This document shows, in pieces, positions 2,509-57,871 of a stretch of DNA of 64,000 bases. The notes below the pieces were generated by a model. That model did not search any database. It worked only from the letters and a program-made list of their open reading frames with translations, and had not been told where the DNA came from. Numbering within the stretch: the stretch's first letter is position 1; each line of letters starts with the position of its first letter. Both the position numbers and the translations under genes were made by a program. Source of the stretch: Escherichia phage vB_EcoM_Schickermooser; the sequence record NC_048196.1; one strand, written 5' to 3'.

Positions 2509-2959
2509 AGAAGGTCATGTCTACCGTTTCCAGGATGAGGATTATATGCGACTATATTCTACCTTTGATAACAGTATTGCGGCTATCATTGGAGAGAATT
2601 TTTTCGAGGTGTTGAGCACTGATGCAAATGGTAATATCTTGTCAATGGTTGTAATAGGTATGAGAGATGGTATTATCACTGCTGGTGATGGGGATCGTTA
2701 CATAATCAATTCTGCTCATATAGATTATTTTGTTGACGGCGGTGTTCGTGGTGGTCGTGGAAAACCCCAAGAAGAACCTGTTGATACAACAAAAGAAGAG
2801 TGGTATGTTGTAATGACTGGTGACACCTGTATTTCTGGATCTCAAAATTATGAAGAAGCTTTGAAAGAAGCAGCGGAGCATAAAATGGCTAATCCTACAG
2901 AAGAGGTTGAAGTTTATAAACGTTTGGTTGTTGCTACCATCGGCGTATCTTTTGTTTAA
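2501..2959 (+). CDS. MFK-family protein 1 (hypothetical)
   Basis: N-terminus MFKEGHVYRF and C-terminal EVYKRLVVATIG shared with the next two ORFs. Confidence 0.55.
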   Translation: MFKEGHVYRFQDEDYMRLYSTFDNSIAAIIGENFFEVLSTDANGNILSMVVIGMRDGIITAGDGDRYIINSAHIDYFVDGGVRGGRGKPQEEPVDTTKEEWYVVMTGDTCISGSQNYEEALKEAAEHKMANPTEEVEVYKRLVVATIGVSFV

Positions 2960-2971
2960 AAGGAGAATGTT

Positions 2972-3757
2972 ATGTTTAAAGTAGGTTTTGTTTACAACTT
3001 CAAATCGGAAGATACCAAAAACAATTTTGGTAAAGCTAGTATTCGTAATGCCTTTTTTGTAGGTTGCATCCAAGATAGTAAATTTAAAGTTTTGGATGTT
3101 GATTTTCTTGGTTCTGTATCCAAGGTGAAGGTATTAGACACAAATAAAATCATCGAAGGTGGTTCTGGGCTTTTCCCTGAAGGTTATAAGCTTGTAAGTT
3201 GTATGGATTATACTCGTTTTGAAGAACATACTCCTGAAGATTATGAAGATTCTCCTACAGGAGGCTGTGTCTTTGTAGAAGGTGGTGTCTATAAGTTTGC
3301 AAGTGAACAAGATCGTAAGCTTTTCGCCAATTATATTGACGGAGGACAAACGACAAACAATGTAAACCGAAAAATTTCCGATCTTATTGGTGATGATCCT
3401 TTCGTGATCACAAAGATGGTTGGACAAGATGTAACAGCAATCCGTAGGCTTGTATGTAATACAAATCATGTAGCAGGTGAAGGTTGGTTCAAGGAAGCTT
3501 GTGCGCTGCTAATCAAAAGCGATAACCCTTATTTTAAAAATATTAAAGATGTTGTTGAGCCTAAACAAGAGGAATCCGCAGCGAATTTTAAACACTATGC
3601 TATTGTTAAAGGTATGAATGTCCAACTGGTGTCACATTCTTACGAAGAGATCGCCACAGAAGCAAAAAAGATGAAAGAAGAATACCCAATTTCTACTGTT
3701 GAGATCTATGAGCGTATTGGTGTTGTTAGTATTGAGCCTACTGCGGTAATAAAATAA
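2972..3757 (+). CDS. MFK-family protein 2 (hypothetical)
   Basis: N-terminus MFKVGFVYNF; AAGGAG SD upstream. Confidence 0.6.
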   Translation: MFKVGFVYNFKSEDTKNNFGKASIRNAFFVGCIQDSKFKVLDVDFLGSVSKVKVLDTNKIIEGGSGLFPEGYKLVSCMDYTRFEEHTPEDYEDSPTGGCVFVEGGVYKFASEQDRKLFANYIDGGQTTNNVNRKISDLIGDDPFVITKMVGQDVTAIRRLVCNTNHVAGEGWFKEACALLIKSDNPYFKNIKDVVEPKQEESAANFKHYAIVKGMNVQLVSHSYEEIATEAKKMKEEYPISTVEIYERIGVVSIEPTAVIK

Positions 3758-8499: not shown

Positions 8500-8529
8500 T
8501 ACATTATCAACACAGATAAGGAGAGAAAA

Positions 8530-8874
8530 ATGATTAAACTTTTATGTGCAGAGTCTTCTGTCGAGTTCCTTAAAGAGGGTAAGCAGTATCTAGCTTCCCA
8601 AGTTATAGATAATCCAGGTTTGTTTTATATTACAGACGAAGAAGGGGATACCCTGTGTATCTCTTTGATTATGGATTGTGGTCGGTTTCATGTAATTGAG
8701 GATGACACTATTCGTCTCTTTGAGGTTTCCTACACAAAAGACAATGGTCCTGTCCGTAAATATCAAATTCCCGCAAAATCCGCCTTTAACGCATGTGTAC
8801 GATTAGGTCAAATCTACGGGGACGATAAAGATTGTCGTGAAGATGTATTTATCAACGTGATCGAGGTAAAATAA
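8530..8874 (+). CDS. hypothetical protein
   Basis: AAGGAGAG SD upstream. Confidence 0.55.
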   Translation: MIKLLCAESSVEFLKEGKQYLASQVIDNPGLFYITDEEGDTLCISLIMDCGRFHVIEDDTIRLFEVSYTKDNGPVRKYQIPAKSAFNACVRLGQIYGDDKDCREDVFINVIEVK

Positions 8875-21450: not shown

Positions 21451-21856
21451 TACCCCTCCATTCAAGACAAGCCATAACTTTACGCCAATCACTTTCTGTA
21501 AGAAAAATCTCGTTTGCTTTCTTCCACAAATCTAAATCGTGAAGGGTTGGAATACGGTATGTTAGTTCACAGAATCTATGCTCTTCTTCTGTAATATAAC
21601 CAAAATGCAGAGCCACATCGTGAAACCAACACCAACCATGCATCTCTCGAACAACATGGTCATGTTGAGACATTATTTTATGCCGTAAACCTAACCAACA
21701 AGGAACAGATACTTTAGTAGTCTTTAATCTGTGATCAACAGTATTAGAGTATTCAATAATAGCTGTCAGTTTCAATCGTGCTTTTTCTAAATCCTCATGC
21801 GTCACTTTGAAATAACTTTCTGAAAGATATCCACACATATTAATAACCTCCTTCAA
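21443..21856 (-). CDS. hypothetical protein
   Basis: 137-aa ORF overlapping neighbours by a few bases. Confidence 0.5.
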   Translation of the reverse strand: MKEVINMCGYLSESYFKVTHEDLEKARLKLTAIIEYSNTVDHRLKTTKVSVPCWLGLRHKIMSQHDHVVREMHGWCWFHDVALHFGYITEEEHRFCELTYRIPTLHDLDLWKKANEIFLTESDWRKVMACLEWRGNE

Positions 21857-22781
21857 AAGGCTTTACTACATGTTGATTAGCTTTAAAACGTTCAACATAG
21901 TCGTTTTCGCCCATGTTTTCATATAGCTTAATAACAACATAAAAGTTTTCCCAAGCATATTCCCTAAACCAACCACTAGTGATGGATGTGCAGACTTTAG
22001 ATAAAGCCATTATAAAACTTTGCTTAGGGGTTGGACCTCCGATCTCTCCACCGAAAGGAATTTGTGAACGTTCCAAAGCCAAAACACACGCTTCTTCATA
22101 AACACCTAACAGGCGCACATGTTTTGGTTGAGCAAAAAACTTTTCTTTGCTGGTCATAACTTCACTTCCATCTTTCATATAAGATTTATATGCCGGAGCA
22201 TCCATTACCGCGATTGCTTCATGGATAGAATCATGATCATAAACATACGGAACCTCATCACCTTTAAAAAAGTCTTTACTTTTTACGTTTAAGTTCGGAT
22301 GAGAGTAAGTGTATGTTTCTTTCTCACGCAACTCATAAATACTCTTAAGATTTTCTGGGATCTTTGCGCCCAGTGACCGCATGAAATGAATATCTTTCAT
22401 AGTTTTAAAGAAGTGAGGACTATCCTTTTTAAAACGATGACTCATTTTAAGAAGGTAGAGCACATCTAAAGGAGCAACAACATGTCCCGCGTAAGTTCGA
22501 CGAACATCATCAGAATCTTCACAATAACTAATCAAAGCTTCTGTGCTATCTCCTTGAGAAGCAATATCGTATTCCAAATGTGCACCAGCTATCATTTTGA
22601 CATGGCCTTTGTTTCCTTTACGTTCTACAAGTTCAACAAACTCCTCTTGAGAGAACATTTTTGATAATTCTTCCCACTCTTGTTCTGTACACAGGTAATC
22701 TAAATCTACACAAGGGCGATACAAGTCTTTTCCCATGTCCATAGCATGAATTTGCAATGCACGGCTACCAATTAACACCAT
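21840..22781 (-). CDS. hypothetical protein, possible nucleotidyltransferase fold
   Basis: N-terminal LIGSRALQ...DLDYL resembles GS...D.D of minimal NTase folds; GAGGAG SD. Confidence 0.45.
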   Translation of the reverse strand: MVLIGSRALQIHAMDMGKDLYRPCVDLDYLCTEQEWEELSKMFSQEEFVELVERKGNKGHVKMIAGAHLEYDIASQGDSTEALISYCEDSDDVRRTYAGHVVAPLDVLYLLKMSHRFKKDSPHFFKTMKDIHFMRSLGAKIPENLKSIYELREKETYTYSHPNLNVKSKDFFKGDEVPYVYDHDSIHEAIAVMDAPAYKSYMKDGSEVMTSKEKFFAQPKHVRLLGVYEEACVLALERSQIPFGGEIGGPTPKQSFIMALSKVCTSITSGWFREYAWENFYVVIKLYENMGENDYVERFKANQHVVKPFEGGY

Positions 22782-28839: not shown

Positions 28840-29532
28840 TTAAATAGCGGTTCCTTCGAAATCCGCCACATTTACGAGATTAATATTTTCAGATTTAGAA
28901 GTCAAGTTGTTTTCTGCAACAGATTTTTCTTCAGTATCCGCCTCGTTACCTGCCACGTTACGAGGTTCTTCTTCACCGTAGGGATTACCGAATTTCAAAA
29001 GATTGATCAATTCTTCTTTGGAGAAGTTTTCTAAATCATCATCTGTTAATTCAATAATCTCGTCTTGTTCTTCAATAAATGTTTCACCACCAGAAAAAGC
29101 ATCTCGCTTTTTAGCTACTTCCATAGCCTGTTCTGGTGTTGCCCCTGCATCAAGAGCAGCTAAAGCAAAGTCTGACCCGCTTCCTACCGCATAATATTCT
29201 TCATCAATCGGATATGCACGTGTTGGGTTATTACCTTCGTGCAGGAAAATACGTCCGTCTGGATGAACAACAAGTGCAATAAACTCTTCATCTTCTTTAT
29301 CTGGATCAGAGTGAATCATCAAACCAGGGACAGCATCACGTGCTGCTTCGCACTGTAGATTTTGTTCAAACCATTGAAAGAAAGAAAGCACGGAGGTCAG
29401 ACGACCAGCACCACCTACAAGGTAATCTCCAATTTTTCGGACCTTTTTGAAATTAATAGAATCTACACGTCCACCAAAAGTTACCTTACCGTCACTCAAA
29501 ATCTTATTTTTGGTTGCAATAATTGTCGTCAC
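28840..29532 (-). CDS. HslV/proteasome-beta-like Ntn-hydrolase peptidase
   Basis: N-terminus MTTIIATKN (Thr right after Met), GGAGR and AVGSGSDFALAA resemble HslV; acidic C-terminal extension. Confidence 0.55.
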   Translation of the reverse strand: MTTIIATKNKILSDGKVTFGGRVDSINFKKVRKIGDYLVGGAGRLTSVLSFFQWFEQNLQCEAARDAVPGLMIHSDPDKEDEEFIALVVHPDGRIFLHEGNNPTRAYPIDEEYYAVGSGSDFALAALDAGATPEQAMEVAKKRDAFSGGETFIEEQDEIIELTDDDLENFSKEELINLLKFGNPYGEEEPRNVAGNEADTEEKSVAENNLTSKSENINLVNVADFEGTAI

Positions 29533-30067: not shown

Positions 30068-30826
30068 TTAAATAAACACTTCAGTAATCAGTTTAGACAA
30101 ACGTCCACGTTTATTATCGTCCGTTGTCAGTTCAACGTATCCAATAAAATCTACAATTGGCTCACGAACACCTTCTTCATTTTCTGGATATAAAAGTTCC
30201 AAAATTTGATGCAGACCATTGCTACGTTTTTTAATTGCATATGTCTGGCGAACATCGCCTAATACAATAACATGCGTATTAATACCTGCACGTTCAATAA
30301 GAAGTTTAAGTGTTTCTGTTGACATAAGTTGTGCTTCGTCAATAATGACGATTGTATTATCCAGGGTAGCCCCCAACAAATAGTTAGGAATATTCAATTC
30401 GATCTTACCTGATCCAATATCGTTTTCCAATTTGTTGGCTGTCATGAATTGCTGGAAAATACGTTTTGTAGATTCATAGTGTGCTGCTAGTTTATCTGTT
30501 TTATCCCCAGACAAGAAACCAATCTGGTCATCTCCGACTTCAGTAGGGTTCTTGATAAAAAGTAGTTTACGGAAGTCTCCTGAACGAAGCATCTGCAAAG
30601 CTTTCCATAAAGCAACAGAGGTTTTACCAGTCCCTGCCGGAGCATTTACAACAGTCAGATCATTCCAAATCATGCTTTGAACAATCTTATTTTGGTCCCC
30701 TTCAGGCATAAATTCATCTAAACGGTAATCGTCATTACCTACCGCTTTTGCTGCATAACGGCTTTCAATCTTTGCTGAATTAGCCAGTTTCTGCCGTTGT
30801 GTTTTAGCTGCGGTTTTATTTCCCAT
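30068..30826 (-). CDS. phoH: PhoH-like ATPase
   Basis: Walker A NAPAGTGKT; start set to ATG 30826 (AAGGAG upstream) because the listed N-terminal extension covers the terminator hairpin. Confidence 0.75.
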   Translation of the reverse strand: MGNKTAAKTQRQKLANSAKIESRYAAKAVGNDDYRLDEFMPEGDQNKIVQSMIWNDLTVVNAPAGTGKTSVALWKALQMLRSGDFRKLLFIKNPTEVGDDQIGFLSGDKTDKLAAHYESTKRIFQQFMTANKLENDIGSGKIELNIPNYLLGATLDNTIVIIDEAQLMSTETLKLLIERAGINTHVIVLGDVRQTYAIKKRSNGLHQILELLYPENEEGVREPIVDFIGYVELTTDDNKRGRLSKLITEVFI

Positions 30827-30843
30827 AGTAGCACTCCTTTTAG

Positions 30844-30861
30844 AAGGGGCCGAAGCCCCTT
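30844..30861 (-). terminator. recurrent stem-loop AAGGGGC-CGAA-GCCCCTT
   Basis: between lysozyme stop and phoH SD. Confidence 0.45.
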
Positions 30862-30863
30862 TA

Positions 30864-31364
30864 TTAGTTGTAAGCATCTAAAGTTCCAGAAGTCAGAACT
30901 TTAATTACTCGTTCAGCACGGTTTGGCGTCTGGCTATACCATCGGCTTTTACGCATGTTTTTACCTGCTTGAGTATAATATGCATTGCTGATTAAAGTCA
31001 AGCTATTTTGAAACCCTTCAGCACCTTTTAACCCCAACTGGAAAACCATGTTGATTATTCCCAATTTACGAGTATCACTCACCTTATCATAGATTGGTGA
31101 TAAGATAGCACTGTTTTTTATGTCTCTCTTCACTTTTGCAACATCGTCAGCAAAGATTTGACGGGCTTCTTTTTCTGTGATAACTCCATTGGTCTTACGA
31201 CCAAGGAGATTATCTAAGATTTGAATAGCCTTTGCTTTATCTTTTATTTTAGTCAGAAGGTGTCCTATGCCGACTGTCCAATAACCAAGATGGTCTTGAT
31301 AAACAGTAAGCTTCAGTCCTTCATCGACTCGTAGCATATCAAACTCATCTACTACTTTAGCCAT
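30864..31364 (-). CDS. T4-type lysozyme (endolysin, muramidase)
   Basis: DEGLKLTVYQDHLGYWTVGIGHLL and SRWYSQTPNRAERVI closely match T4 lysozyme E as recalled. Confidence 0.8.
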   Translation of the reverse strand: MAKVVDEFDMLRVDEGLKLTVYQDHLGYWTVGIGHLLTKIKDKAKAIQILDNLLGRKTNGVITEKEARQIFADDVAKVKRDIKNSAILSPIYDKVSDTRKLGIINMVFQLGLKGAEGFQNSLTLISNAYYTQAGKNMRKSRWYSQTPNRAERVIKVLTSGTLDAYN

Positions 31365-31526: not shown

Positions 31527-31787
31527 TTACTCCGCAATTTGAGCCATGAGATCACGCAGTTCGGTAAAACCGCCTACGTATGTTACCTCCCCGTTCACTT
31601 CAGACAAAATTTGTGGAAATGTGCGTGGAGGAACTCCGGTAAGATCAACAACTGTTTTAGTCATTGATTCTAAATCGTAGTCTTGGTCAAGACTTAAATA
31701 TTCAAACTGTTTATTGCGCATGGTTAATAGTTGTTTTGACATTTCGCAAAATTGACAGTTAGGTTTACCAAAAATTACAAATTCCAT
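31527..31787 (-). CDS. glutaredoxin (NrdH/Grx-like)
   Basis: CQFC redox motif in GKPNCQFCEMSK; 86 aa. Confidence 0.65.
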   Translation of the reverse strand: MEFVIFGKPNCQFCEMSKQLLTMRNKQFEYLSLDQDYDLESMTKTVVDLTGVPPRTFPQILSEVNGEVTYVGGFTELRDLMAQIAE

Positions 31788-32629
31788 TACCTCTCCTTAT
31801 TAAGTAATACTGCTAAAGACCGTTCAATACCTTTATTTAAATCTGATTTTGTAAGATAGTGACTGGTTACTAGTTGTGACTTCACCGGACGTGCTGCTGG
31901 AGCATTATAGGTTGAAGCTGATACCGCCGATATCTTAACAGGTTCTGGCATCTGTGTCAAGATCTTTTCCGCAAACTCCGCCCAAGAAATAAGATGGCTT
32001 CCTGCAAAATGGTAAGTCTTTACAGATCTTGACCAACCTGTTTTTAATACTTCAAAAATAGCTTCTGCTAAATCTGGGGCATATGTTGGACAAGAGAACT
32101 GATCTGCAACGATAGTAAAATCACGTTGTCCATCATTATAGCGAGACAACATAGTTTTTAGAAAGTTATTTCCAAATTCACTATATACAGACGCTGTTCG
32201 AATAATATATGCGTTCGGGTTAACTCCTCGCACCATTTTTTCACCGAGTTCTTTCGTATACCCATAATTGTTTATCGGGTTAGGTGTAGTATCTTCAAAA
32301 ATAGGATGAGAATAATTAAAAATATAGTCTGTAGAAATATGCACAAAATCAATTTTAAGTTTGCTGCACACTGCCGCAATATTTGCAGGGCCATAGGCAT
32401 TAACAGCCAAAGCAGTAGCAAAATCATGTTCTGCTTTATCTACAGCCGTATAAGCAGCGCAATTAATAACACCATCTACATAATCTTCAATAATAGCGTT
32501 TCGCACAGCTTCAAAATTTGTAATATCTACACGTTCTTTAGGATAAATTAAAGACACATTTGAAGGAGCCACTTTACGTAAAGCTTGTCCCAGTTGTCCA
32601 TTACCACCCAATACCAGATATGTTAGCAT
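31787..32629 (-). CDS. rmlD: dTDP-4-dehydrorhamnose reductase
   Basis: N-terminal GGNGQLG Rossmann motif; about 280 aa; last gene of rml operon. Confidence 0.7.
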   Translation of the reverse strand: MLTYLVLGGNGQLGQALRKVAPSNVSLIYPKERVDITNFEAVRNAIIEDYVDGVINCAAYTAVDKAEHDFATALAVNAYGPANIAAVCSKLKIDFVHISTDYIFNYSHPIFEDTTPNPINNYGYTKELGEKMVRGVNPNAYIIRTASVYSEFGNNFLKTMLSRYNDGQRDFTIVADQFSCPTYAPDLAEAIFEVLKTGWSRSVKTYHFAGSHLISWAEFAEKILTQMPEPVKISAVSASTYNAPAARPVKSQLVTSHYLTKSDLNKGIERSLAVLLNKER

Positions 32630-33189
32630 ACACCCTCGCTACGTAGCTGTTGAAAAGACTTAGCCATTGCATCTTTTGTTGATAAGATAGGTTTAAAATC
32701 TTCGTCAAAAATCATATCGAAGCCCCAATCAATCCCTATATCAGGATCATCCCAACGTAAACTTTGTTCGCTGGAAGGGTCGTATGGAGTTGTGCATTTG
32801 TATTCGAAGATAGCATCCATACTCAACACTATAAAACCATGTGCCAAACCAGGTGGAAGCCAGAACTGTGTATGGTGTCGTGCACGAAGAACAACACCGT
32901 CCCAAGCACCGTAAGTAGGACTATCTTTACGTAGGTCTACAGCGAAATCCAATACTTCCCCACTTACACAACGAACAAGCTTACCTTGCGGATTATTTGT
33001 TTGAAAGTGCATTCCTCGCAAAACACCGAAGTTTGATTTAGACATGTTATCTTGAACGAAAGTTTGTCTACCAATGATATCTTCATATTTTTGTTCATTA
33101 TATGTTTCTAAAAAGAAACCACGGTCATCTTTATAAACGTCTGGTTTGATAATTACCGCACCTTCAATTTTTGTTTTTTCTACTTTCAT
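32623..33189 (-). CDS. rmlC: dTDP-4-dehydrorhamnose 3,5-epimerase
   Basis: start set to ATG 33189 (GGAGG upstream, ATGA overlap with rmlA stop); DDRGFFLE cupin motif. Confidence 0.7.
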
Positions 33190-34064
33190 TTTCCCTCCGC
33201 TAATTTGAGTAGGTATTGCCCGTACTCTGTTTTCTTCAGTGAGTTTCCATGGTAGACCAAAGTCTCTAAAGAAATCCACCCTTTTTTGAAAGCAATTTCT
33301 TCCAGGCACGCAATCTTCAATCCTTGACAGTTCTCAATAGTCTGCACGAATTGACCAGCTTCCATCAGACTGGCGTGTGTTCCTGTGTCAAGCCAAGTAA
33401 ATCCTCGTCCGAGAACTTCTACTTGTAACTTCCTGTCTTCGAGGTAGCTGCGATTGATATCGGTGATCTCCAGTTCTCCACGCGCGGAAGGGGTTACTTC
33501 TAATGCACGTTGAATAACAGAGTTATCATAGAAATATAAACCTGTGACAGCATAATCTGATTTAGGATTTTCAGGTTTCTCTTCAATAGAAATAACTTGA
33601 CGATTACTCCCAAATTCAACCACACCGAATCGTTCAGGATCTTTCACCAAACACCCGAAGATACAAGCTCCGCCCCAAACATCTACCATCTCACTAGCGT
33701 TAATCAGTAGTTTACCAAAGCTTTGTCCGAAGAATAGGTTGTCACCTAAAATAAGAGCAACAGAGTCTTCTCCGATAAAATCTTTACCGATGATGAAAGC
33801 GTCCGCAAGACCTCGTGGCTCGGATTGGATTGCGTAAGTGAGTTTTATCCCAAACATAGACCCATCTCCAAGAAGATGCTCAAAGTCTTCCTGATCGCCT
33901 GGTGTGGTGATGATTAAGATATCCTTAATGTCAGCCAACATCAATACCGATAAGGGGTAGTAGATCATAGGTTTGTCATACACAGGGAGCAATTGCTTGC
34001 TCACACTGCGTGTTACCGGATGAAGGCGGGTTCCACTTCCTCCCGCCAAAATAATACCTTTCAT
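33186..34064 (-). CDS. rmlA: glucose-1-phosphate thymidylyltransferase
   Basis: N-terminus [18 protein letters not shown]. Confidence 0.8.
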
Positions 34065-34072
34065 AACCCTCC

Positions 34073-35065
34073 TTAAATCTTCTTACTCCACCATTGAGGG
34101 TTGTTTAAGTACCATTCAATCGTTGAGTAGAGATCTTGTTCAAATGTAGAGTTTGCACTCCAACCCAGTTCAGACTCTATTTTAGAAGGATTGATTTCAT
34201 AACGCAAGTCATGTCCTTTACGATCTTCAACAAAAGTTATCAAGTTGGAAGAAGGGTAGGTTCCTGCTTCTGGATGTACAGCATCCATGTAGTCACAAAC
34301 CATATAGATGATCTCCATATTGGTTTTGGGATTACGTGTTCCAACATTATACGTTTGACCTGGTTCTCCACCTGTTGCCACTTGAAGAATAGCTCGCGCA
34401 TGATCCTCAACAAAAAGCCAGTCTCGCACCTGATCGCCTTTACCATACACCGGAATCTCTTTATTCGTCAAGATACTTGTGATGATTTTTGGGATCAGCT
34501 TTTCTGGATGTTGATAAGGTCCAAAGTTATTGGAGCAGTTGGTTATCACAACAGGTAAACCGTAGGTACGGTACCAAGCTTTCACAAGATGGTCAGATGC
34601 TGCCTTAGACGCACTGTACGGGCTTGAAGGCGCATAAGCTGTCTCTTCGGTAAAGGGAACGCCAGAGTCTGCCATATCGCCGTACACTTCGTCTGTGGAG
34701 ACATGTACGAACATCTTAAGTTTATTTTTTGGGAGGAGCCTTGCAGCTTCCAATAAATTGTATGTACCAATAATATTGGAGTCGATGAAAACTCGTGGAT
34801 TCTTGATAGAATTATCCACATGACTCTCTGCCGCTAAGTGAATGATGAAATCGGGATTGCACTCTACTACTAAACTTTTGACCTGGGTTTCGTTTGCCAA
34901 ATCTGTTATGCTTAGTTTAACGTGAGTGATATCGCCTACATTCTCAATATCTGCTGCATAGCCCATCTTATCAACGACAAAAACTTCGTTATTGGGATCT
35001 TGACAAAGAGAGCGCACCACGGCACTCCCAATAAAACCAAGACCACCTGTTACCAGATAGCGCAT
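34073..35065 (-). CDS. rmlB: dTDP-glucose 4,6-dehydratase
   Basis: GGLGFIGS Rossmann motif and YSASK catalytic motif; first of rmlB-A-C-D. Confidence 0.75.
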
Positions 35066-35074
35066 CAGTTCTCC

Positions 35075-35401
35075 TTACCAGACATGTTGAGAAATAATAG
35101 TTTCCGTTTTAATGTTATATTTTTCAAGTAGCTTTGCATAGGCTTCTTTTGCATTCTCATTCAATTGCTCAAGATCTACAGCTATGCTTCCTTCTCCGCC
35201 TTCTAAATCAAGGCCATATATGCAATAAGACTCATCCGCATCGTAGAAAGGAGAGATGCGGCTTAAGTCAAGACCTTCTTGTAAGAACCAGTTAAAATCT
35301 CCGTCAAATTCTTCTTCAATTCTAGGATCTTCTCCTACAGCCTCTTCCCACTTATTAAAAGGTGCACCCTGTAACATACGCCATTCGATATCAATACCCA
35401 T
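35075..35401 (-). CDS. hypothetical acidic protein
   Basis: 108-aa ORF. Confidence 0.5.
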   Translation of the reverse strand: MGIDIEWRMLQGAPFNKWEEAVGEDPRIEEEFDGDFNWFLQEGLDLSRISPFYDADESYCIYGLDLEGGEGSIAVDLEQLNENAKEAYAKLLEKYNIKTETIISQHVW

Positions 35402-35697: not shown

Positions 35698-35906
35698 TAT
35701 TCCTCCTTAATTATTTCAAATTTGGCAACACCATTTACAATAATATGACCACAAGACATAACTCCTAGCCAAGGATCGCCGTTTTTCTTCAGGCGTTTAC
35801 CGAATACATCACAAAAACCATTCTTCATTTCAGAGGCTTCATAAGAAGCCCCTTTATCAAAAACGTCTTTGAATGTGTCGATTATACCAACACATTTCAA
35901 AATCAT
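35697..35906 (-). CDS. hypothetical protein
   Basis: 69-aa ORF, ATGA overlap with nrdB. Confidence 0.45.
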   Translation of the reverse strand: MILKCVGIIDTFKDVFDKGASYEASEMKNGFCDVFGKRLKKNGDPWLGVMSCGHIIVNGVAKFEIIKEE

Positions 35907-36991
35907 TCGAAGTCAAGCTCCTCATCATCAGAGAGATCTTTGTTAGCTGAATTCAATTTGTAGTTAGTTAACTGAATCTCTTGGGCTGCTGACTGAATCA
36001 AATCAGGATTCAACCATTTTTCCATCCAAGCTAAAGGGCTATGTTTAGGTGCTTTAAACTTGGCTTTCATTTTCAATCGACGATAAATAGGAGCAGCATT
36101 GAAATAAACCCACTGTTTAGACAATTCGGCGTTAAGACCTACAATAAAACGACCTTCACTAAACAGGTAGTCACACCACTGTTCCTCTTGTTCAACAACA
36201 GTGTCGAGGATCAAAGTCAACTCTTCAATATTGTCTTCGTAAATTTTACGCCAAATTGGGTCATGCATCAATGCATCAATTACAGCATAATCCATCTTAA
36301 CATGCAAGATTTCATCTAGCATAATTTTCTGGATCAGTTTACAAGCTCCAACAAACAGTTGTTGTTCTGCCATAGCAAAAGTAGCAGAGAAGGAAGATAT
36401 AAACTGAATACCTTCTAATCCAATCAGGGCTACCATCCCTTTAAGAATCAGCAATCGAAGTTCATCGTTAGCTTCAATCAATCCTAGAGCATACTTATGA
36501 CCAGCTTCTTCCAACTGACCCATGATATCAGCAATGATACCCATACGATTGAAAATTTTATCATTAATCATAATCTGATTGATGACTTCAATTGGATCTG
36601 GAGTACATTGACGGATTATTTCAGAATACGTTAACGCATGGAGAACTTCCATTTCACTCTGCTTCATCATCATAGCACAGGCTTCATTATTACTCAAGAA
36701 TGGAGAGAACAAAGTGATGATTGATTTTGCAAGAGAATCATTTTCCCATTGGAACGATAAGTTTTTAATCATAACATCATAATTGTTTTTAGAACAAGCT
36801 ACGAAATCTTTACGTGTCTGATCCAGATTGACTTCATTCTCATCCCAATCTTGTGCTTTTTGAAGTTTGTAGAGTTTGTGCATCTCTGGATAAGTTACGT
36901 TAACAGAATCAAAGATCCCTAATTGTTCCCCTAAAAATACTGGATATTTTCCTGTTTTGTAAACTTCATTGTGTAAATTAATTGCTGCCAT
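35903..36991 (-). CDS. nrdB: ribonucleotide reductase class Ia beta subunit
   Basis: 362 aa; ferritin-like helical protein adjacent to nrdA. Confidence 0.75.
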   Translation of the reverse strand: MAAINLHNEVYKTGKYPVFLGEQLGIFDSVNVTYPEMHKLYKLQKAQDWDENEVNLDQTRKDFVACSKNNYDVMIKNLSFQWENDSLAKSIITLFSPFLSNNEACAMMMKQSEMEVLHALTYSEIIRQCTPDPIEVINQIMINDKIFNRMGIIADIMGQLEEAGHKYALGLIEANDELRLLILKGMVALIGLEGIQFISSFSATFAMAEQQLFVGACKLIQKIMLDEILHVKMDYAVIDALMHDPIWRKIYEDNIEELTLILDTVVEQEEQWCDYLFSEGRFIVGLNAELSKQWVYFNAAPIYRRLKMKAKFKAPKHSPLAWMEKWLNPDLIQSAAQEIQLTNYKLNSANKDLSDDEELDFE

Positions 36992-37012: not shown

Positions 37013-37028
37013 AGGGGCCGAAGCCCCT
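37013..37028 (-). terminator. recurrent stem-loop AGGGGC-CGAA-GCCCCT
   Basis: between nrdA stop and nrdB start. Confidence 0.4.
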
Positions 37029-40052: not shown

Positions 40053-41051
40053 TCACCATTTAGTATGATTTGTTAAAAGTTGACGATGTTGAATCCAGCC
40101 TTTGAAATTGCCAGACCAAAACTTACCATTACGATCTACATGGGTAATACCTGGTTCCCAAGAGTTAAAATCCCAAGGAGCATTGATAAACAAATCTTCA
40201 AAACAGTTCTCTCCGTATTGTTCGCATGTTTCTTGCATTGGGGTGGCTTGATGTTCAAACGGAGAAGCATGAACCTTGCGCCCAGTTAGCAAACGACCAT
40301 AGATATCTAAAGCTTTATCTTTAGTTGCATTCAAACGACGATAGCTAACCTGTGCACAACACGAAGCTGAAATAGCTTTGGCTTCTTCCAAAGTAAGCAC
40401 AACAACTTCTCCAGATTCATCTTGAACATAGTATCCACCAAAAACAAAATGATCGTCACCTTCTGTGCCAATACTATCATAGAAATGGTCTACATAAGGT
40501 GTGTGCCATTGCCCTGGTTTCAGCACTTCTGGTGTAGATTCTTCATACTCTTTGTGCATCTCTTTAGCCAAAGCCTCGATAGTAGGATCGGCTTCTTTGT
40601 CATCACGTAGCCACCAGAAATTTTCATATTCTGTTGCTGTCAGAACTGTTTTAATTCGTTGGAAAGGTTCCAGAAGACGGTTTGCAACTTGTTTGTGGTA
40701 CCCTGCCAAAGAGAATTCTTCTGCAAAACGTGCTGCACTAAGCGCGGCAAGATCCCACCACTCTTGAGCAGTATAACCTGCATCAATAAGAGCATCATGG
40801 TCAACACCTTTATCCTGCATACCAGGTTGGTTAGCCCCAAAACGATAAGGACGAGCAGGTTGACTTCGCACCATTTCAATCAGTGTTTTAACAGGTATAG
40901 CACGGCTAGAAGCAGCATTACGACTGAACAGGCGGTGAGTCATCAATTCTGAATGAATAATACGTGGATACTCTAGTTCAAAAGTTACAATCTCTTTTCC
41001 GTCTTCAGTGATGGAATGCGCAATAATACTAGCCGAAATCTGTTTTGTCAT
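40053..41051 (-). CDS. thyX: ThyX-like flavin-dependent thymidylate synthase (variant motif)
   Basis: THRLFSRNAASSRA aligns to the ThyX RHR-x7-S-x-R signature, with Thr in place of the first Arg. Confidence 0.55.
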   Translation of the reverse strand: MTKQISASIIAHSITEDGKEIVTFELEYPRIIHSELMTHRLFSRNAASSRAIPVKTLIEMVRSQPARPYRFGANQPGMQDKGVDHDALIDAGYTAQEWWDLAALSAARFAEEFSLAGYHKQVANRLLEPFQRIKTVLTATEYENFWWLRDDKEADPTIEALAKEMHKEYEESTPEVLKPGQWHTPYVDHFYDSIGTEGDDHFVFGGYYVQDESGEVVVLTLEEAKAISASCCAQVSYRRLNATKDKALDIYGRLLTGRKVHASPFEHQATPMQETCEQYGENCFEDLFINAPWDFNSWEPGITHVDRNGKFWSGNFKGWIQHRQLLTNHTKW

Positions 41052-41060
41052 TTTTTCTCC

Positions 41061-41669
41061 TTAGTTTTTAAAATTGTTCAAAGTGTTAAAAACATCCAAA
41101 CATGTTAACCACTGATCTTCTAAACCTGTGATCACAACATTTGGTTTTTTCTTTAGTTCTTCTAGATGGTTATCTTTATAAGGCGTATTAAAATATATTT
41201 TAACCACTTCATCTGGAAAATATAGTAGGTTATCAGCCCTGTCATCTATTGCTATATCACAAGGCAATAAGTATTTTTCTTTCGTAGCAAAAAAGCCGTT
41301 ACCAGATCCTTTGCTAAAATCAATCGTATCTAACGTTCTTAAAACATGCTTATGTTTAGAACTTAAGTGACCACCTTTTGTCACACTTGCGATCAAAAGA
41401 TTGCTACCTTTCCTTGAAACATACTTTAAGAAATCTGGCATACCTGGAACAAAACCCATTGTATCATAGAGATGAGGATTATCCAGAAATCCGTAAGGAT
41501 CTATATTGAACTCCTCCCTGAAACCAGGAAAGTAGTTGGTAAGATCATAGTCTGCATTTTTTGTGAATGTGTCTATCTTAACACCAAGTCCACTAATCTT
41601 ATTCAACCATTCTAACCAAGCAACATCTAATGGAGCCACAACTAAATCCCAATCACATACTATCTGCAT
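41061..41669 (-). CDS. HAD-superfamily nucleotidase (putative 5'-deoxynucleotidase)
   Basis: N-terminal CDWDLVV matches HAD motif I DxDx(V/T). Confidence 0.45.
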   Translation of the reverse strand: MQIVCDWDLVVAPLDVAWLEWLNKISGLGVKIDTFTKNADYDLTNYFPGFREEFNIDPYGFLDNPHLYDTMGFVPGMPDFLKYVSRKGSNLLIASVTKGGHLSSKHKHVLRTLDTIDFSKGSGNGFFATKEKYLLPCDIAIDDRADNLLYFPDEVVKIYFNTPYKDNHLEELKKKPNVVITGLEDQWLTCLDVFNTLNNFKN

Positions 41670-55946: not shown

Positions 55947-56021
55947 GGCCCTGTAGCTCAATGGGAGAGCTGTCGGCTCATAACCGATAGGTAGCTGGAT
56001 CGAAACCAGCCAGGGCCACCA
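55947..56021 (+). tRNA. tRNA-Met (anticodon CAT; could be Ile2/lysidine type)
   Basis: manual cloverleaf: acceptor GGCCCTG/CAGGGCC, anticodon loop CTCATAA, encoded CCA. Confidence 0.6.
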
Positions 56022-56023
56022 AA

Positions 56024-56098
56024 GTCTTTATGGTGTAATGGATAGCACAGGAGTCTTCTAAACTCTTAGTCAAGGTTCGATTCCTTGTAAAGACACCA
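56024..56098 (+). tRNA. tRNA-Arg (anticodon TCT)
   Basis: acceptor GTCTTTA/TAAAGAC, anticodon loop CTTCTAA, T-loop TTCGATT, CCA. Confidence 0.6.
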
Positions 56099-56100
56099 GA

Positions 56101-56286
56101 ACATTTTAACATGAATTAGCTCAAGTGATTTGAACCCACTACTGATCATGGTGGCAGAGAATGAGGCAAGTATGTCAGACATTATAAACAAAGGCCACGG
56201 TTATATTAGAAGACATAAATGCTCGAAGAGCACCGTTCGTGGAGAACGGGGGTTGGTGGAGTCACCATTCATGGTAAAATGTTTTA
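56101..56286 (+). ncRNA. candidate structured RNA flanked by 17-bp near-perfect inverted repeat
   Basis: AACATTTTAACATGAAT at 56101 pairs with ATTCATGGTAAAATGTT at 56270 (one mismatch). Confidence 0.3.
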
Positions 56287-56294
56287 AAAAACTA

Positions 56295-56324
56295 TTGACA
56301 ACAAGTATTATTTTATGTTAGATT
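56295..56324 (+). promoter_or_regulatory. sigma70-like promoter candidate (TTGACA-N18-TAGATT)
   Basis: TTGACA 56295-56300; immediately upstream of tRNA-Ser. Confidence 0.45.
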
Positions 56325-56332
56325 ATAAGTAT

Positions 56333-56423
56333 GGAAGGGCAAATCGACGTGGCGACGAAAACGGTCTTGAAAACCGCCGAGCTTTAAAGAGCCTTGGGAG
56401 TTCGACTCTCCCTCCTTCCGCCA
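56333..56423 (+). tRNA. tRNA-Ser (anticodon TGA), type II
   Basis: acceptor GGAAGGG/TCCTTCC, loop CTTGAAA, long variable arm, CCA. Confidence 0.55.
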
Positions 56424-56428
56424 GGTTA

Positions 56429-56514
56429 GGTAGATTGGTGAAATGGTAGCCACGACAGTTTGCTAAACTGTAGTCGGAAACGGCGTGTAGGTTCGAGTCC
56501 TACATCTACCGCCA
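56429..56514 (+). tRNA. tRNA-Ser (anticodon GCT), type II
   Basis: acceptor GGTAGAT/ATCTACC, loop TTGCTAA, long variable arm, CCA. Confidence 0.6.
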
Positions 56515-56516
56515 AG

Positions 56517-56625
56517 TTCTTTTTAATGTAGCTTACTTTAATAGAGTAAACTTTCGGCAAATGGCCCCCACCATCTTACCGATAACTCATAGTTAGTGGT
56601 GCGAACACTGGCTATTTTAAAAAGA
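56517..56625 (+). ncRNA. candidate structured element between tRNAs
   Basis: TTCTTTTTAA at 56517 versus TTAAAAAGAA at 56616 inverted repeat; internal hairpins. Confidence 0.2.
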
Positions 56626-56643
56626 ATTTAAATACTAGCATTT

Positions 56644-56731
56644 AGGTGAGTTAATTCCGTAGGGGTAGCGGGGCAGACTGTAAATCTGTTATCATTGCGA
56701 TTCGGGTGGTTCGACTCCATCACTCACCACC
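56644..56731 (+). tRNA. tRNA-Tyr (anticodon GTA), type II
   Basis: acceptor GGTGAGT/ACTCACC, loop CTGTAAA, long variable arm, CCA. Confidence 0.55.
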
Positions 56732-56737
56732 AAATTA

Positions 56738-56823
56738 AGATGAGTTGGCTGAATGGTTTAAGCGGCGGACTGTTAATCCGTGTTCGAAAGAACGATATAG
56801 GTTCAAATCCTATACTCATCGCC
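56738..56823 (+). tRNA. type II tRNA with apparent anticodon GTT (Asn anticodon on long-variable-arm body)
   Basis: acceptor GATGAGT/ACTCATC, anticodon stem GCGGA/TCCGT, loop CTGTTAA, variable hairpin GTTC-GAAA-GAAC, CCA. Confidence 0.45.
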
Positions 56824-56830
56824 AGAATTA

Positions 56831-56908
56831 TGGACTTGTAGAGTTAAGGTAAACCCCCCAGTCGCCAAGAGGCTTCTGGAATTGCAGGTATCGAATCCTG
56901 CCGAGTCC
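56831..56908 (+). tRNA. tRNA-like element, atypical (anticodon not assignable)
   Basis: 7-bp acceptor pairing GGACTTG/CGAGTCC and T-arm GCAGG/CCTGC with 8-nt loop; no canonical anticodon arm. Confidence 0.3.
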
Positions 56909-56914
56909 CAGCTT

Positions 56915-56989
56915 TGCTCCTATAGTATAATGGCTATTACAACGGTTTTGTAATCCGTGGATCTCTGTTCGATTCAGAGTGGGAGCACC
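56915..56989 (+). tRNA. tRNA-Thr (anticodon TGT)
   Basis: acceptor GCTCCTA/TGGGAGC, loop TTTGTAA, T-arm CTCTG-TTCGATT-CAGAG, CCA. Confidence 0.55.
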
Positions 56990-57263
56990 AACACAACATT
57001 AAGGGCACTGTGATTGATCGTCGTATCCTGTGCACAAGGTCTGTTCGAAAGACAGTGTTCTTAGTATTGTGTTGATCACAAAAAGAGTTACCTGAAACTT
57101 GACCGGAGTAGGGTTGGATGGGGCAAAAGAAGAAGCGGCTCTCCCATCGACAGCAACGAAGAATAATATTTGACTTTGGTTTTGTATTATTTTAAGTTAG
57201 CTTACCGAACGTAGGGCTAGTCACCCAATGGGATACTCGTCACTGTCCCACTCAATAAAACTA

Positions 57264-57293
57264 TTGACAACCAATAGTAAAATGTAGTATAGT
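57264..57293 (+). promoter_or_regulatory. sigma70-like promoter candidate (TTGACA-N18-TATAGT)
   Basis: TTGACA 57264-57269, TATAGT 57288-57293; upstream of tRNA-Gly. Confidence 0.5.
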
Positions 57294-57304
57294 AAAGATG
57301 TAGG

Positions 57305-57378
57305 GCGTTCTTGGTGTAGCGGTAGCATTCCGTCCTTCCAAGTCGGCGGCACGAGTTCGATCCTCGTAGAACGCTCCA
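57305..57378 (+). tRNA. tRNA-Gly (anticodon TCC)
   Basis: acceptor GCGTTCT/AGAACGC, loop CTTCCAA, T-arm ACGAG-TTCGATC-CTCGT, CCA. Confidence 0.55.
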
Positions 57379-57476
57379 AATTATTTAATAAAGGGTTGCC
57401 AGAAAACTTTCTCTTTTACTCATGGTTTTCTCCTTCTCTCACACCTCTTCTGGTTGCCCTTCATTAAATGATTTAT

Positions 57477-57552
57477 TGGTTTGTAGTGTAGTCAGGTAGC
57501 ACACGACACTTTGACTGTCGTAGGTTTGGTTCAAATCCAGACAGACCAGCCA
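57477..57552 (+). tRNA. tRNA-Gln (anticodon TTG)
   Basis: U1-A72 acceptor TGGTTTG/CAGACCA, anticodon stem CGACA/TGTCG, loop CTTTGAC, CCA. Confidence 0.55.
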
Positions 57553-57557
57553 TATAA

Positions 57558-57634
57558 CGGAATTTAGCTCAGTTTGGTAGAGCATACGCTTTGGGAGCGT
57601 AGGGTCGCAGGTTCGAATCCTGCAATTCCGACCA
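57558..57634 (+). tRNA. tRNA-Pro (anticodon TGG)
   Basis: acceptor CGGAATT/AATTCCG, loop TTTGGGA, T-arm GCAGG-TTCGAAT-CCTGC, CCA. Confidence 0.65.
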
Positions 57635-57640
57635 ATTTAA

Positions 57641-57714
57641 TGTTTCGTAGTTCAATGGTAGAACCCACGACTGATAATCGTGAGACACAAGTTCGATTCT
57701 TGTCGAAACAACCA
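57641..57714 (+). tRNA. tRNA-Ile (anticodon GAT)
   Basis: acceptor TGTTTCG/CGAAACA, anticodon stem CACGA/TCGTG, loop CTGATAA, CCA. Confidence 0.55.
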
Positions 57715-57717
57715 ATT

Positions 57718-57786
57718 TCCCGTTAGACTTACAGGATAAGAGTTCCACAGCTTATTGTGATGCTGGTTCGAATCCAGCACGGGATA
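57718..57786 (+). tRNA. tRNA-like element with non-canonical anticodon arm
   Basis: T-arm GCTGG-TTCGAAT-CCAGC and 6/7 acceptor pairing; best anticodon stem CACA/TGTG encloses a 6-nt loop; no CCA. Confidence 0.3.
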
Positions 57787-57792
57787 CATAAT

Positions 57793-57871
57793 AGCGGGAT
57801 AGAGGAGTCTGGTCGTCCTCGCCAGTTTCATATGCTGGAGATCATCGGTTCAAATCCGATTCCCGCCTCCA
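57793..57871 (+). tRNA. tRNA-Met (anticodon CAT), 1-72 mismatch (initiator-like?)
   Basis: acceptor AGCGGGA/TCCCGCC with A1-C72 mismatch, anticodon stem CCAGT/GCTGG, loop TTCATAT, T-loop TTCAAAT, CCA. Confidence 0.5.

Follow-up and report, generated by a model that had tools for sequence, protein, structure and literature searches.

A predicted complete dTDP-L-rhamnose pathway in a phAPEC8-like Escherichia phage and the glycosyltransferase module that may use its product

A 64,000-nucleotide stretch of Escherichia phage vB_EcoM_Schickermooser (NC_048196.1), called the window in the following, carries at positions 31787-35065 four contiguous minus-strand open reading frames (ORFs), the predicted products of which make up a complete pathway to deoxythymidine diphosphate (dTDP)-L-rhamnose. 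An initial annotation had proposed as much from the letters alone, and the proposal was borne out when the four proteins were compared with profile hidden Markov models: each of them found its best match in an Rml equivalog and passed the corresponding cut-off, which is the curated NCBIfam equivalog threshold.

34073-35065, minus strand: rmlB, dTDP-glucose 4,6-dehydratase, 330 aa (TIGR01181, 429.9 bits; cut-off 365.1)
33186-34064, minus strand: rmlA, glucose-1-phosphate thymidylyltransferase of the short tetrameric type, 292 aa (TIGR01207, 461 bits; cut-off 360.65)
32623-33189, minus strand: rmlC, dTDP-4-dehydrorhamnose 3,5-epimerase, 188 aa (TIGR01221, 224.5 bits; cut-off 155.75)
31787-32629, minus strand: rmlD, dTDP-4-dehydrorhamnose reductase, 280 aa (TIGR01214, 238.8 bits; cut-off 224.05, a narrow pass)

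For rmlC, the start is the ATG annotated in relatives, the mechanically delimited ORF reaching up to a GTG at 33309. Pfam agreed with NCBIfam on the four families, RmlD being matched by PF04321 with an E-value of 7e-74; RmlD missed the enterobacterial subtype model NF007440 (120.7 bits vs 308). An assignment to GalE or GalU was discarded, as the GalE model gave 121.4 bits for RmlB and the GalU model 82.8 bits for RmlA, far under the Rml scores.

The N-terminal motifs that had been named for RmlB and RmlA are present in the translations. RmlB contains the GxxGxxG of extended SDR enzymes together with STDEVYG and YSASK, and RmlA has the GGSGTRL loop. The nearest solved structures of RmlB are Salmonella enterica RmlB (1g1a, E 7e-111) and Escherichia coli RffG (1bxk), with E-values of 1e-109 to 1e-111, and RmlA matches RmlA and RffH entries of the PDB at 1e-113 to 1e-124. 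When RmlC was aligned with S. enterica RmlC (1dzr, E 4e-56), the catalytic His (LRG(M/L)HFQ), Lys (QGKLVRC), Tyr ((E/L)YK) and Asp (W(D/N)D) were all found to be kept. For RmlD, the nearest solved structures are those of Bacillus anthracis (3sc6) and Clostridium acetobutylicum (1vl0, about 1e-44) and not S. enterica 1kbz; the Thr/Tyr/Lys triad is kept here too, since STDYIF and YGYTK align with both structures (motifs STDY(I/V)F and YGxxK). In the cell, RmlA would convert glucose-1-phosphate and dTTP into dTDP-glucose, which RmlB would dehydrate to dTDP-4-keto-6-deoxyglucose; RmlC would then epimerise C3 and C5, and RmlD would reduce C4 to yield dTDP-L-rhamnose.

The junctions between the genes are tight. 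The rmlA stop and the rmlC start share the letters ATGA, rmlC runs into rmlD by 7 nt, the stop of rmlD overlaps the start of the glutaredoxin gene (grx) by 1 nt as TAATG, and the 8-nt gap between rmlB and rmlA holds an AGGAGG Shine-Dalgarno sequence. Of the translational coupling claimed earlier, the ATGA overlap was thus read in the sequence as described, and the tight junctions suggest that the genes are co-translated. A promoter and terminator scan was uninformative for the rml operon, the sole clear hairpin lying at 37013-37028 between nrdA and nrdB. The surroundings also correspond to the earlier description, with the lysozyme and glutaredoxin genes on one side, and nrdB, nrdA and a ThyX-type gene on the other:

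30068-30877: PhoH (Pfam)
30864-31364: T4-type lysozyme (PF00959)
31527-31787, minus strand: grx, NrdC-like glutaredoxin (PF00462, E 1.8e-9), the downstream neighbour of rmlD
35071-35076, minus strand: AAGGAG, Shine-Dalgarno sequence of rmlB, starting inside the TAA stop of the upstream orf108
35075-35401, minus strand: orf108, acidic 108-aa protein without assigned function (phrog_15453), abutting rmlB
35903-36991, minus strand: nrdB, class Ia ribonucleotide reductase beta subunit in the annotation of relatives (84% amino acid identity to phi92)
from 37036: nrdA, so named in relatives
40053-41051, minus strand: ThyX-type thymidylate synthase, 332 aa (Thy1, E 1.9e-8)
41061-41669, minus strand: NT5C-like deoxyribonucleotidase, adjoining the ThyX gene

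The grx gene marks the point of insertion of the rml genes, between nrdB and grx. According to notes in the phi92 record, the homologues of these two genes in PVP-SE1 are gp139 and gp141, two genes apart. The orf108 protein, which gave no Pfam or NCBIfam match, is 91.7% identical to phi92 gp069, compared with 54-72% for the Rml proteins and 84% for nrdB. It is found in the same place in ESCO37, phi92 and Klebsiella phage FKP3, as the immediate upstream neighbour of rmlB or, in the forms with the deletion and those of Klebsiella phages considered below, of rmlC; in phi92, one additional small ORF (gp068) separates the orf108 homologue from the rml genes.

The rml stretch is 99.8% identical in DNA to Escherichia phages AV125 and vB_EcoM_3A1/10C3/118_SA_NWU, 99.5% to Ro121lw and 97.7% to phAPEC8, with 97.5-99.8% over the Phapecoctavirus records listed, and by this comparison the source is a phAPEC8-like Phapecoctavirus of the subfamily Stephanstirmvirinae. 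From its base 1 onward, the genome is covered by the window over 64 kb, and this part is collinear with the initial 64.1 kb of the Ro121lw record, likewise counted from base 1; the genome-wide statements made below rest on the near-identical 150-kb genome of Ro121lw.

More than 100 phage genomes of two genera, each sequenced independently, carry the cluster at this locus. In the phi92-like Justusliebigvirus, the order and the site are the same, between nrdB (plus small ORFs) and grx, and amino acid identities to phi92 amount to 63% for RmlB, 72% for RmlA, 62% for RmlC and about 55% for RmlD. Because synonymous sites are saturated in this comparison (proportion of synonymous differences, pS, 0.63-0.82) while the nonsynonymous proportion (pN) stays at 0.21-0.30, and because the synteny is the same, the rml genes have been kept intact by purifying selection since before the split between Phapecoctavirus and Justusliebigvirus.

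These data also bear on the question whether the segment could be a host-derived passenger, or an assembly chimera, with no function in the phage. E. coli does hold homologous rfb and rff genes, and the GC content at third codon positions (GC3) is higher in rmlB (0.39) and rmlA (0.41) than in rmlC (0.29), rmlD (0.23) and the neighbouring genes (0.28-0.33). However, when the 3.3-kb cluster was compared with 5426 complete E. coli genomes in a sensitive blastn search, DNA identity reached about 64% at best, and no more than 45% of the query was covered. The E. coli pieces that match span 2.8 kb compared with 1.8 kb in the phage, since rfbD sits between rfbB and rfbA: the enterobacterial order is B-D-A-C, that of the phage B-A-C-D. 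A recent capture from E. coli is ruled out by this low identity together with the different order. With the synteny shared by more than 100 phage genomes, the purifying selection across saturated synonymous divergence and the proximity of RmlD to structures from Firmicutes and not to S. enterica RmlD, a passenger or chimera is hardly conceivable. The split in GC3 hints that the rmlBA and rmlCD halves may have separate histories; the nearest solved homologues of RmlC and RmlB are enterobacterial. Compared with the bacterial rfb/rml loci of Salmonella and E. coli, the same four enzyme families are found (structure homologues at E-values of 1e-44 to 1e-124), but in a virulent myophage and between nrdB and grx, with no O-antigen, Wzx/Wzy or rhamnosyltransferase genes adjacent.

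The two halves of the cluster also differ in how constantly they are kept. At 95% identity or more, RmlC was found in 63 phage records and RmlA in 46; the roughly 17 of the 63 records without rmlB-rmlA constitute a natural presence/absence polymorphism within Phapecoctavirus. The dispensable segment can be delimited as follows:

about 33195-35070, minus strand: rmlB-rmlA segment of about 1.87 kb, cleanly absent in some Phapecoctavirus genomes

That ESCO37 is devoid of these two genes had already been remarked (PMC10269720). A BLAST alignment of the window with this phage breaks at 33198/35070 with a 5-nt overlap, and the ESCO37 junction, GGTAAGGAGAGAAAATG, fuses the two Shine-Dalgarno sequences, so that rmlC gains the ribosome-binding site of rmlB. 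The same pattern, with 73% coverage, was seen in Mt1B1_P17, anhysbys, nepoznato, ZCKP1 and others. A reading of the same paper suggested that ESCO5 holds rmlA and rmlB in a second copy; this was not retained, since tblastn placed the genes at one place per record, and what the paper describes is the ESCO37 deletion.

In Klebsiella phage FKP3, which belongs to the same subfamily, only rmlC-rmlD is present at the site. As the FKP3 proteins are nearer to those of phi92 than to those of Schickermooser, the loss of rmlBA in FKP3 is independent of the ESCO37-type loss. From these comparisons, rmlB-rmlA was lost twice independently in the subfamily, with rmlC-rmlD always kept.

Enterobacteria make dTDP-4-keto-6-deoxyglucose by means of RffH and RffG for the synthesis of enterobacterial common antigen (ECA), and RmlC and RmlD are restricted to strains with rhamnose-containing glycans. 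DNA similar to the rml query was present in all 5426 of the complete E. coli genomes; the matches listed fall on rfb genes, and the universal coverage is taken as reflecting rffG/rffH. If all hosts thus supply dTDP-4-keto-6-deoxyglucose and only some of them possess RmlC and RmlD, this would explain why rmlCD was never lost and rmlBA was expendable, and the phage rml genes would guarantee the donor sugar in any enterobacterial host. The two losses of rmlBA, the constancy of rmlCD and the supply by the host indicate that selection acts on the end product, dTDP-L-rhamnose, rmlB and rmlA only boosting its supply.

Neither the cluster nor the most common explanation of it is new. The four genes are annotated as dTDP-rhamnose enzymes in dozens of GenBank phage records, from phAPEC8 (JX561091) and phi92 onward. 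Olsen et al. (2020) found their presence in the DNA-metabolism region "peculiar" and considered that they may serve to glycosylate hydroxymethylated nucleotides as T4 does (PMC7552041), Maffei et al. (2021) mentioned "a putative dTDP glycosylation machinery" in phi92-like phages (PMC8594841), and Vitt et al. (2024) repeated the idea of a "rhamnose modification" (PMC10844046). Our literature search found no experimental test of the function of the cluster. Set against the clusters of phAPEC8, ESCO5/13 and AV125 among Phapecoctavirus and those of the phi92-like Justusliebigvirus, the present one differs in nothing substantive and is one more member of the group. What is added here is a link to a module of four glycosyltransferase (GT) genes that lies beyond the window, the finding that rmlBA was lost repeatedly and rmlCD kept, and several independent arguments against rhamnosylated DNA.

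In the initial annotation, no glycosyltransferase had been recognised in the window, and the same was found when the window ORFs of unknown function of at least 140 aa were scanned with Pfam (E <= 0.01) through their 99%-identical Ro121lw counterparts. The rest of the genome, which was to be searched as a check, gave another result: in the scan of the 48 unknown ORFs (at least 140 aa) of the near-identical genome, GT families were flagged in four adjacent genes lying about 70 kb away from the cluster.

Ro121lw 103.9-107.1 kb (L003, 3939-7080), corresponding to phAPEC8 gp071-gp074 (L005, 3798-6945): four consecutive GT genes

The phAPEC8 proteins gp071, gp072, gp073 and gp074 comprise 187, 227, 316 and 314 aa, respectively, and in the E. 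coli phages the module consists of two GT-A-like and two GT-B/GT4-like enzymes. RefSeq names all four "glycosyltransferase"; in the BASEL collection, two are called "putative glycosyltransferase" and two "putative disaccharide synthase", and PHROGs agrees. The genes are located directly upstream of a conserved, very acidic 92-aa ORF (isoelectric point, pI, 4.2), which is followed by primase/helicase, DNA methyltransferase and DNA polymerase genes. No match was obtained for the four proteins in a sequence search of the PDB, nor for gp071 against gp072 with hhalign. A conserved RDxDT motif is carried by gp071, and gp072 resembles TAGT and beta-glucosyl-HMC-alpha-GT locally and weakly. In structure, gp074 has the T4 enzymes AGT and BGT among its neighbours, but GT4 enzymes acting on small molecules and lipid-linked glycans are closer to it than T4 AGT; among the nearest structural neighbours of the GTs are the undecaprenyl-linked and lipopolysaccharide (LPS) GTs PglA, WlaC, WbnH, WaaG and WaaB. 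All four proteins are soluble by their hydropathy (maximum over 19 residues <=1.65) and three of the four are acidic (pI 4.9-6.0), properties that are weakly informative. A tellurite-resistance-like set (TerC, TerD, vWA-TerF-like, TelA, ComF-like phosphoribosyltransferase, SprT-like), at about 108-118 kb of Ro121lw, adjoins the GT module; its conservation extends to distant relatives (L009, L010).

The distribution of the module was then compared with that of the rml genes. At 95% identity or more, the GT-B was found in 63 records, a number equal to that of RmlC, and it is present as well in phi92-like phages (76% identity) and in Klebsiella relatives (about 39%). These Klebsiella relatives are reduced on both sides, with rmlC-rmlD and only one gp071-like GT and one GT-B; the number of GTs ranges from one to four among relatives. 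In two distant relatives, L008 (135.6 kb; 2667-3737) and L022 (7952-9016), the GT module encloses, next to the primase, an SDR gene resembling dTDP-glucose 4,6-dehydratase, and a gene of this type scores 171 bits on TIGR01181, below the cut-off. This arrangement suggests that different 6-deoxyhexose supplies may serve the same GT cassette in distant relatives. Taken together, these observations support a coupling between the rml genes and the GT module, and the donor would then be consumed by the soluble GTs of the phage itself (gp071-gp074 of phAPEC8).

If the donor is made for these enzymes, its acceptor has to be considered. The initial annotation had placed DNA, virion proteins and the host envelope side by side as targets of a dedicated sugar donor; the donor pathway stood, and DNA proved to be the least supported of the three acceptors. 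According to the hypothesis of Olsen et al. (2020), dTDP-rhamnose would serve to rhamnosylate a modified base, as in the glucosylated hydroxymethylcytosine (hmC) of T4 or the arabinosylated 5-hydroxycytosine (5hoC) of RB69. The position of the rml genes between nrdAB and grx and that of the GT genes directly upstream of replication genes are consistent with it, as are the weak likeness of gp072 to TAGT and beta-glucosyl-HMC-alpha-GT and the presence of T4 AGT and BGT among the structural neighbours of gp074. Furthermore, the known sugar hypermodifications combine a phage nucleoside diphosphate (NDP)-sugar pathway with several GTs (PMC13326640). However, these modifications, including the arabosylated 5-hydroxycytosine of RB69 and DLP3, begin with a ThyA-family enzyme that hydroxylates or hydroxymethylates the pyrimidine (PMC13326640). 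A search for hydroxymethyl-pyrimidine enzymes, the other check envisaged at the outset, came back empty: no ThyA, TET_JBP or 2OG-oxygenase family was detected by Pfam among the 48 unknown ORFs. The sole thymidylate synthase is of the ThyX type, which is represented in 1033 phage records, among them ICP1, PAK_P1-like and N4-like phages with neither rml nor GT genes. ThyX was considered as a rhamnose-linked base modifier, as its RHR motif reads THR, and was rejected: these 1033 records being mostly devoid of rml and GT genes, there is no specific link.

The composition of the genome provides a further argument. In the 150-kb genome, 16 of the 61 testable 6-bp palindromes are absent, compared with 10 of 3960 non-palindromic hexamers (within the window, 6/43 and 4/3584, respectively). 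PstI sites number 0 where 30 are expected, BamHI sites 0 for 25 and SphI sites 0 for 14; SalI, XhoI, SacI and NheI sites are also absent, and GTAC, CCGG and GGCC have observed-to-expected ratios of 0.33-0.41. EcoRI, EcoRV, HindIII and GATC are not avoided. Some of the absent non-palindromes resemble type IIS sites, for instance GGTCTC/GAGACC, GGTCTC being the BsaI site; GACATC/GATGTC is missing as well. Such an extreme avoidance of type II sites implies cleavable DNA, and it is the outcome to be expected of DNA that restriction enzymes can attack. In agreement with this, Maffei et al. reported Vequintavirinae and relatives, their collection holding three phi92-like isolates, to be "exceptionally susceptible" to restriction-modification (RM) systems 'despite a putative dTDP glycosylation machinery' (PMC8594841).

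Because no base-activating enzyme was found, the ThyX is of a generic type, restriction sites are avoided and relatives are reported to be RM-sensitive, bulk glycosylation of the bases is judged quite improbable; the acidity of three of the GTs and the greater closeness of gp074 to enzymes other than T4 AGT point in the same direction. A sparse or site-limited rhamnosylation of DNA or RNA, which would need no hydroxymethyl handle, is regarded as very improbable. With T4, RB69 and DLP3 (PMC13326640), the phage shares a predicted NDP-sugar supply and several putative GTs among its DNA-metabolism genes; it differs from them in that no ThyA-homologous base hydroxymethylase or hydroxylase was found, in the avoidance of sites and the RM sensitivity reported for phi92-like relatives, and in the donor, which is a dTDP-6-deoxyhexose and not a UDP-sugar.

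The surroundings of more distant cassettes were examined for a hint of another target, the GT-B profile having more than 560 viral relatives in a scan of IMG/VR. In L028 and L030, a distant GT cassette with a GT-A partner adjoins the genes for terminase, portal, protease and capsid; it comes right after terminase and portal in L029, where a further GT2 and a methyltransferase accompany it, and in L034; it is near terminase, portal and Mu-F genes in L024 and near tail genes in L026. In L031 and L033, it lies beside helicase, primase or polymerase, a location that would equally suit a nucleic-acid target. These contexts are mixed, and they lean towards a virion-associated role.

On balance, it seems somewhat probable that the phage produces dTDP-rhamnose itself, for use by its own GTs, and that the acceptor is something other than DNA, possibly a virion protein. 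Among the individual acceptors, a protein, and most likely a component of the virion, comes first but is proposed with reserve; a glycoconjugate of the host envelope is rather unlikely, another host or phage protein or a small molecule is held to be equally so, and DNA comes last, as a distinctly poor candidate. A precedent for the first of them exists in Che8-type mycobacteriophages, the GTs of which glycosylate capsid proteins according to Freeman (2023), as cited in PMC11256854.

Several points weigh against a virion protein, or against the coupling on which this proposal depends. There is no obvious Ser/Thr-rich tail on the capsid proteins, and a search of the structural proteins for such tails as glycosylation sites gave nothing convincing save the Ser/Thr/Gly-rich C-terminus of the portal. 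We know of no report of a glycosylated virion protein for phi92 or phAPEC8. The co-occurrence of rml and GT genes lies largely within one subfamily and thus represents few independent events; both modules are surrounded there by replication and nucleotide genes. The GTs could use UDP-sugars. In addition, the report of RM sensitivity covers Vequintavirinae and relatives including phi92-like phages, apparently with no Phapecoctavirus among them (PMC8594841).

Some of the data would also agree with an action on the host envelope. The phage GTs could add rhamnose-containing units to the LPS core, to the O-antigen or to ECA intermediates, or RmlC and RmlD could merely divert dTDP-4-keto-6-deoxyglucose from ECA synthesis; the outcome would be receptor masking, superinfection exclusion, or progeny that do not stick to debris. 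The GT structural neighbours PglA, WlaC, WbnH, WaaG and WaaB are suggestive in this respect, and the kept enzymes RmlC and RmlD act at the branch point that is shared with ECA synthesis. These phages carry many glycan-binding fibres and spikes, with capsule, ECA and LPS as proposed targets (PMC10844046; PMC8594841). However, the GTs have no membrane segment by their hydropathy maxima, and in the Pfam scan of the unknown ORFs no flippase, polymerase or bactoprenol GT of the phage was detected. A strictly lytic phage would moreover have little time to replace outer-membrane glycans, and a mere drainage is difficult to reconcile with the presence, in most genomes, of rmlA and rmlB, which enlarge the pool. 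Even with both variants taken jointly, an effect on the envelope is considered rather improbable. The GtrABC seroconversion modules of temperate phages offer a parallel in so far as a phage drives a change of glycans, possibly on the host surface in the present case, but here the phage is lytic and the GTs are soluble, whereas Gtr uses UDP-glucose with no dedicated sugar pathway. In the same scan, no GtrA flippase, GtrB bactoprenol GT or membrane GT was seen, the sole membrane protein detected being TerC-like.

The target could also be a non-structural one (for example, a protein of the host, a molecule of immune signalling or RNA), its glycosylation serving anti-defence or host take-over. The strand and the blocks of replication and nucleotide-metabolism genes in which the modules are placed would fit this, as would the many candidates for counter-defence that the genome encodes (Sir2, Macro, NADAR, ComF-like phosphoribosyltransferase). 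This case is purely circumstantial: no target is suggested by the gene neighbourhood, and the distant cassettes stand mostly in structural modules. It is deemed unlikely, more so than an envelope target.

For the glycosylation of a protein by enzymes of the phage itself, which remains the preferred proposal, two comparisons are instructive. Like the Che8-type mycobacteriophages, the present group possesses phage GTs, and distant homologues of its cassette lie beside terminase, portal and capsid genes, once with a methyltransferase; here, however, the GTs are in a replication block. To our knowledge, mycobacteriophages carry no NDP-sugar pathway of their own. Giant viruses feed virus-encoded GTs for virion glycans by the synthesis of UDP-L-rhamnose in Mimivirus and by GDP-sugar enzymes in chloroviruses. 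As in those viruses, a 6-deoxyhexose nucleotide pathway and GTs are encoded by the phage, independently of the glycosylation of the host, but theirs is a eukaryotic UDP or GDP route with bifunctional enzymes and the one described here is the bacterial four-enzyme dTDP route.

Other features of the window complete the description of the genome:

18770-19585, minus strand: Sir2-family protein, early/middle block
21840-22781, minus strand: DUF7277/DUF7275 protein, early/middle block
28840-29532, minus strand: HslV-like peptidase, early/middle block
55947-57871, plus strand: 10 tRNA genes (Met x2, Arg, Ser, Asn, Thr, Gly, Gln, Pro, Ile), just past the strand switch at about 55 kb

Among the scanned ORFs of the near-identical genome, there are also proteins with Macro and NADAR domains; with the Sir2, DUF7277/DUF7275 and HslV-like proteins, they are possible counter-defence or host take-over genes. 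Base 1 of the window is base 1 of the Ro121lw GenBank record, hence the start of the deposited genome with the same arbitrary origin, and small replacements are seen in the early region at 647-952, 2100-2376 and 8512-8872. The GC skew switches sign at about 18.5 kb and about 55 kb, in step with gene orientation. Among the database records, MG065650, MG065656, MG065639 and MG065689 ('Campylobacter phage B15, C3, A150, A110a') are 99-100% identical to Phapecoctavirus or Justusliebigvirus coliphages, and these four 'Campylobacter jejuni phage' records are probably mislabelled or contaminant genomes. 'Acinetobacter phage vB_AbaM_ABPW7' and 'Klebsiella phage ZCKP1' are likewise Phapecoctavirus.

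Since a base-activating enzyme was not found, restriction sites are avoided, phi92-like relatives are reported to be RM-sensitive and rmlCD was kept while rmlBA was lost, the idea of a rhamnose modification of DNA that is repeated in the literature is probably wrong, and the question shifts to a non-DNA acceptor. The natural rmlBA-minus phages and the Klebsiella phages with two GTs constitute ready material for comparison. Phapecoctavirus and phi92-like phages, which are among the coliphages of broadest host range, serve as components of cocktails for therapy and biocontrol (PMC10844046, PMC10269720); a glycan on the virion or a remodelling of the envelope, if true, would matter for immune recognition, for stability and for the range of hosts. 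The Stephanstirmvirinae may, as a tentative proposal, possess a self-sufficient protein glycosylation system, in which dTDP-L-rhamnose and two to four soluble GTs build a rhamnose-containing glycan on a virion, phage or host protein. If this were true, no such system would have been described before in phages that infect Gram-negative hosts, and bacterial viruses would have their equivalent of the glycosylation machinery of giant viruses.

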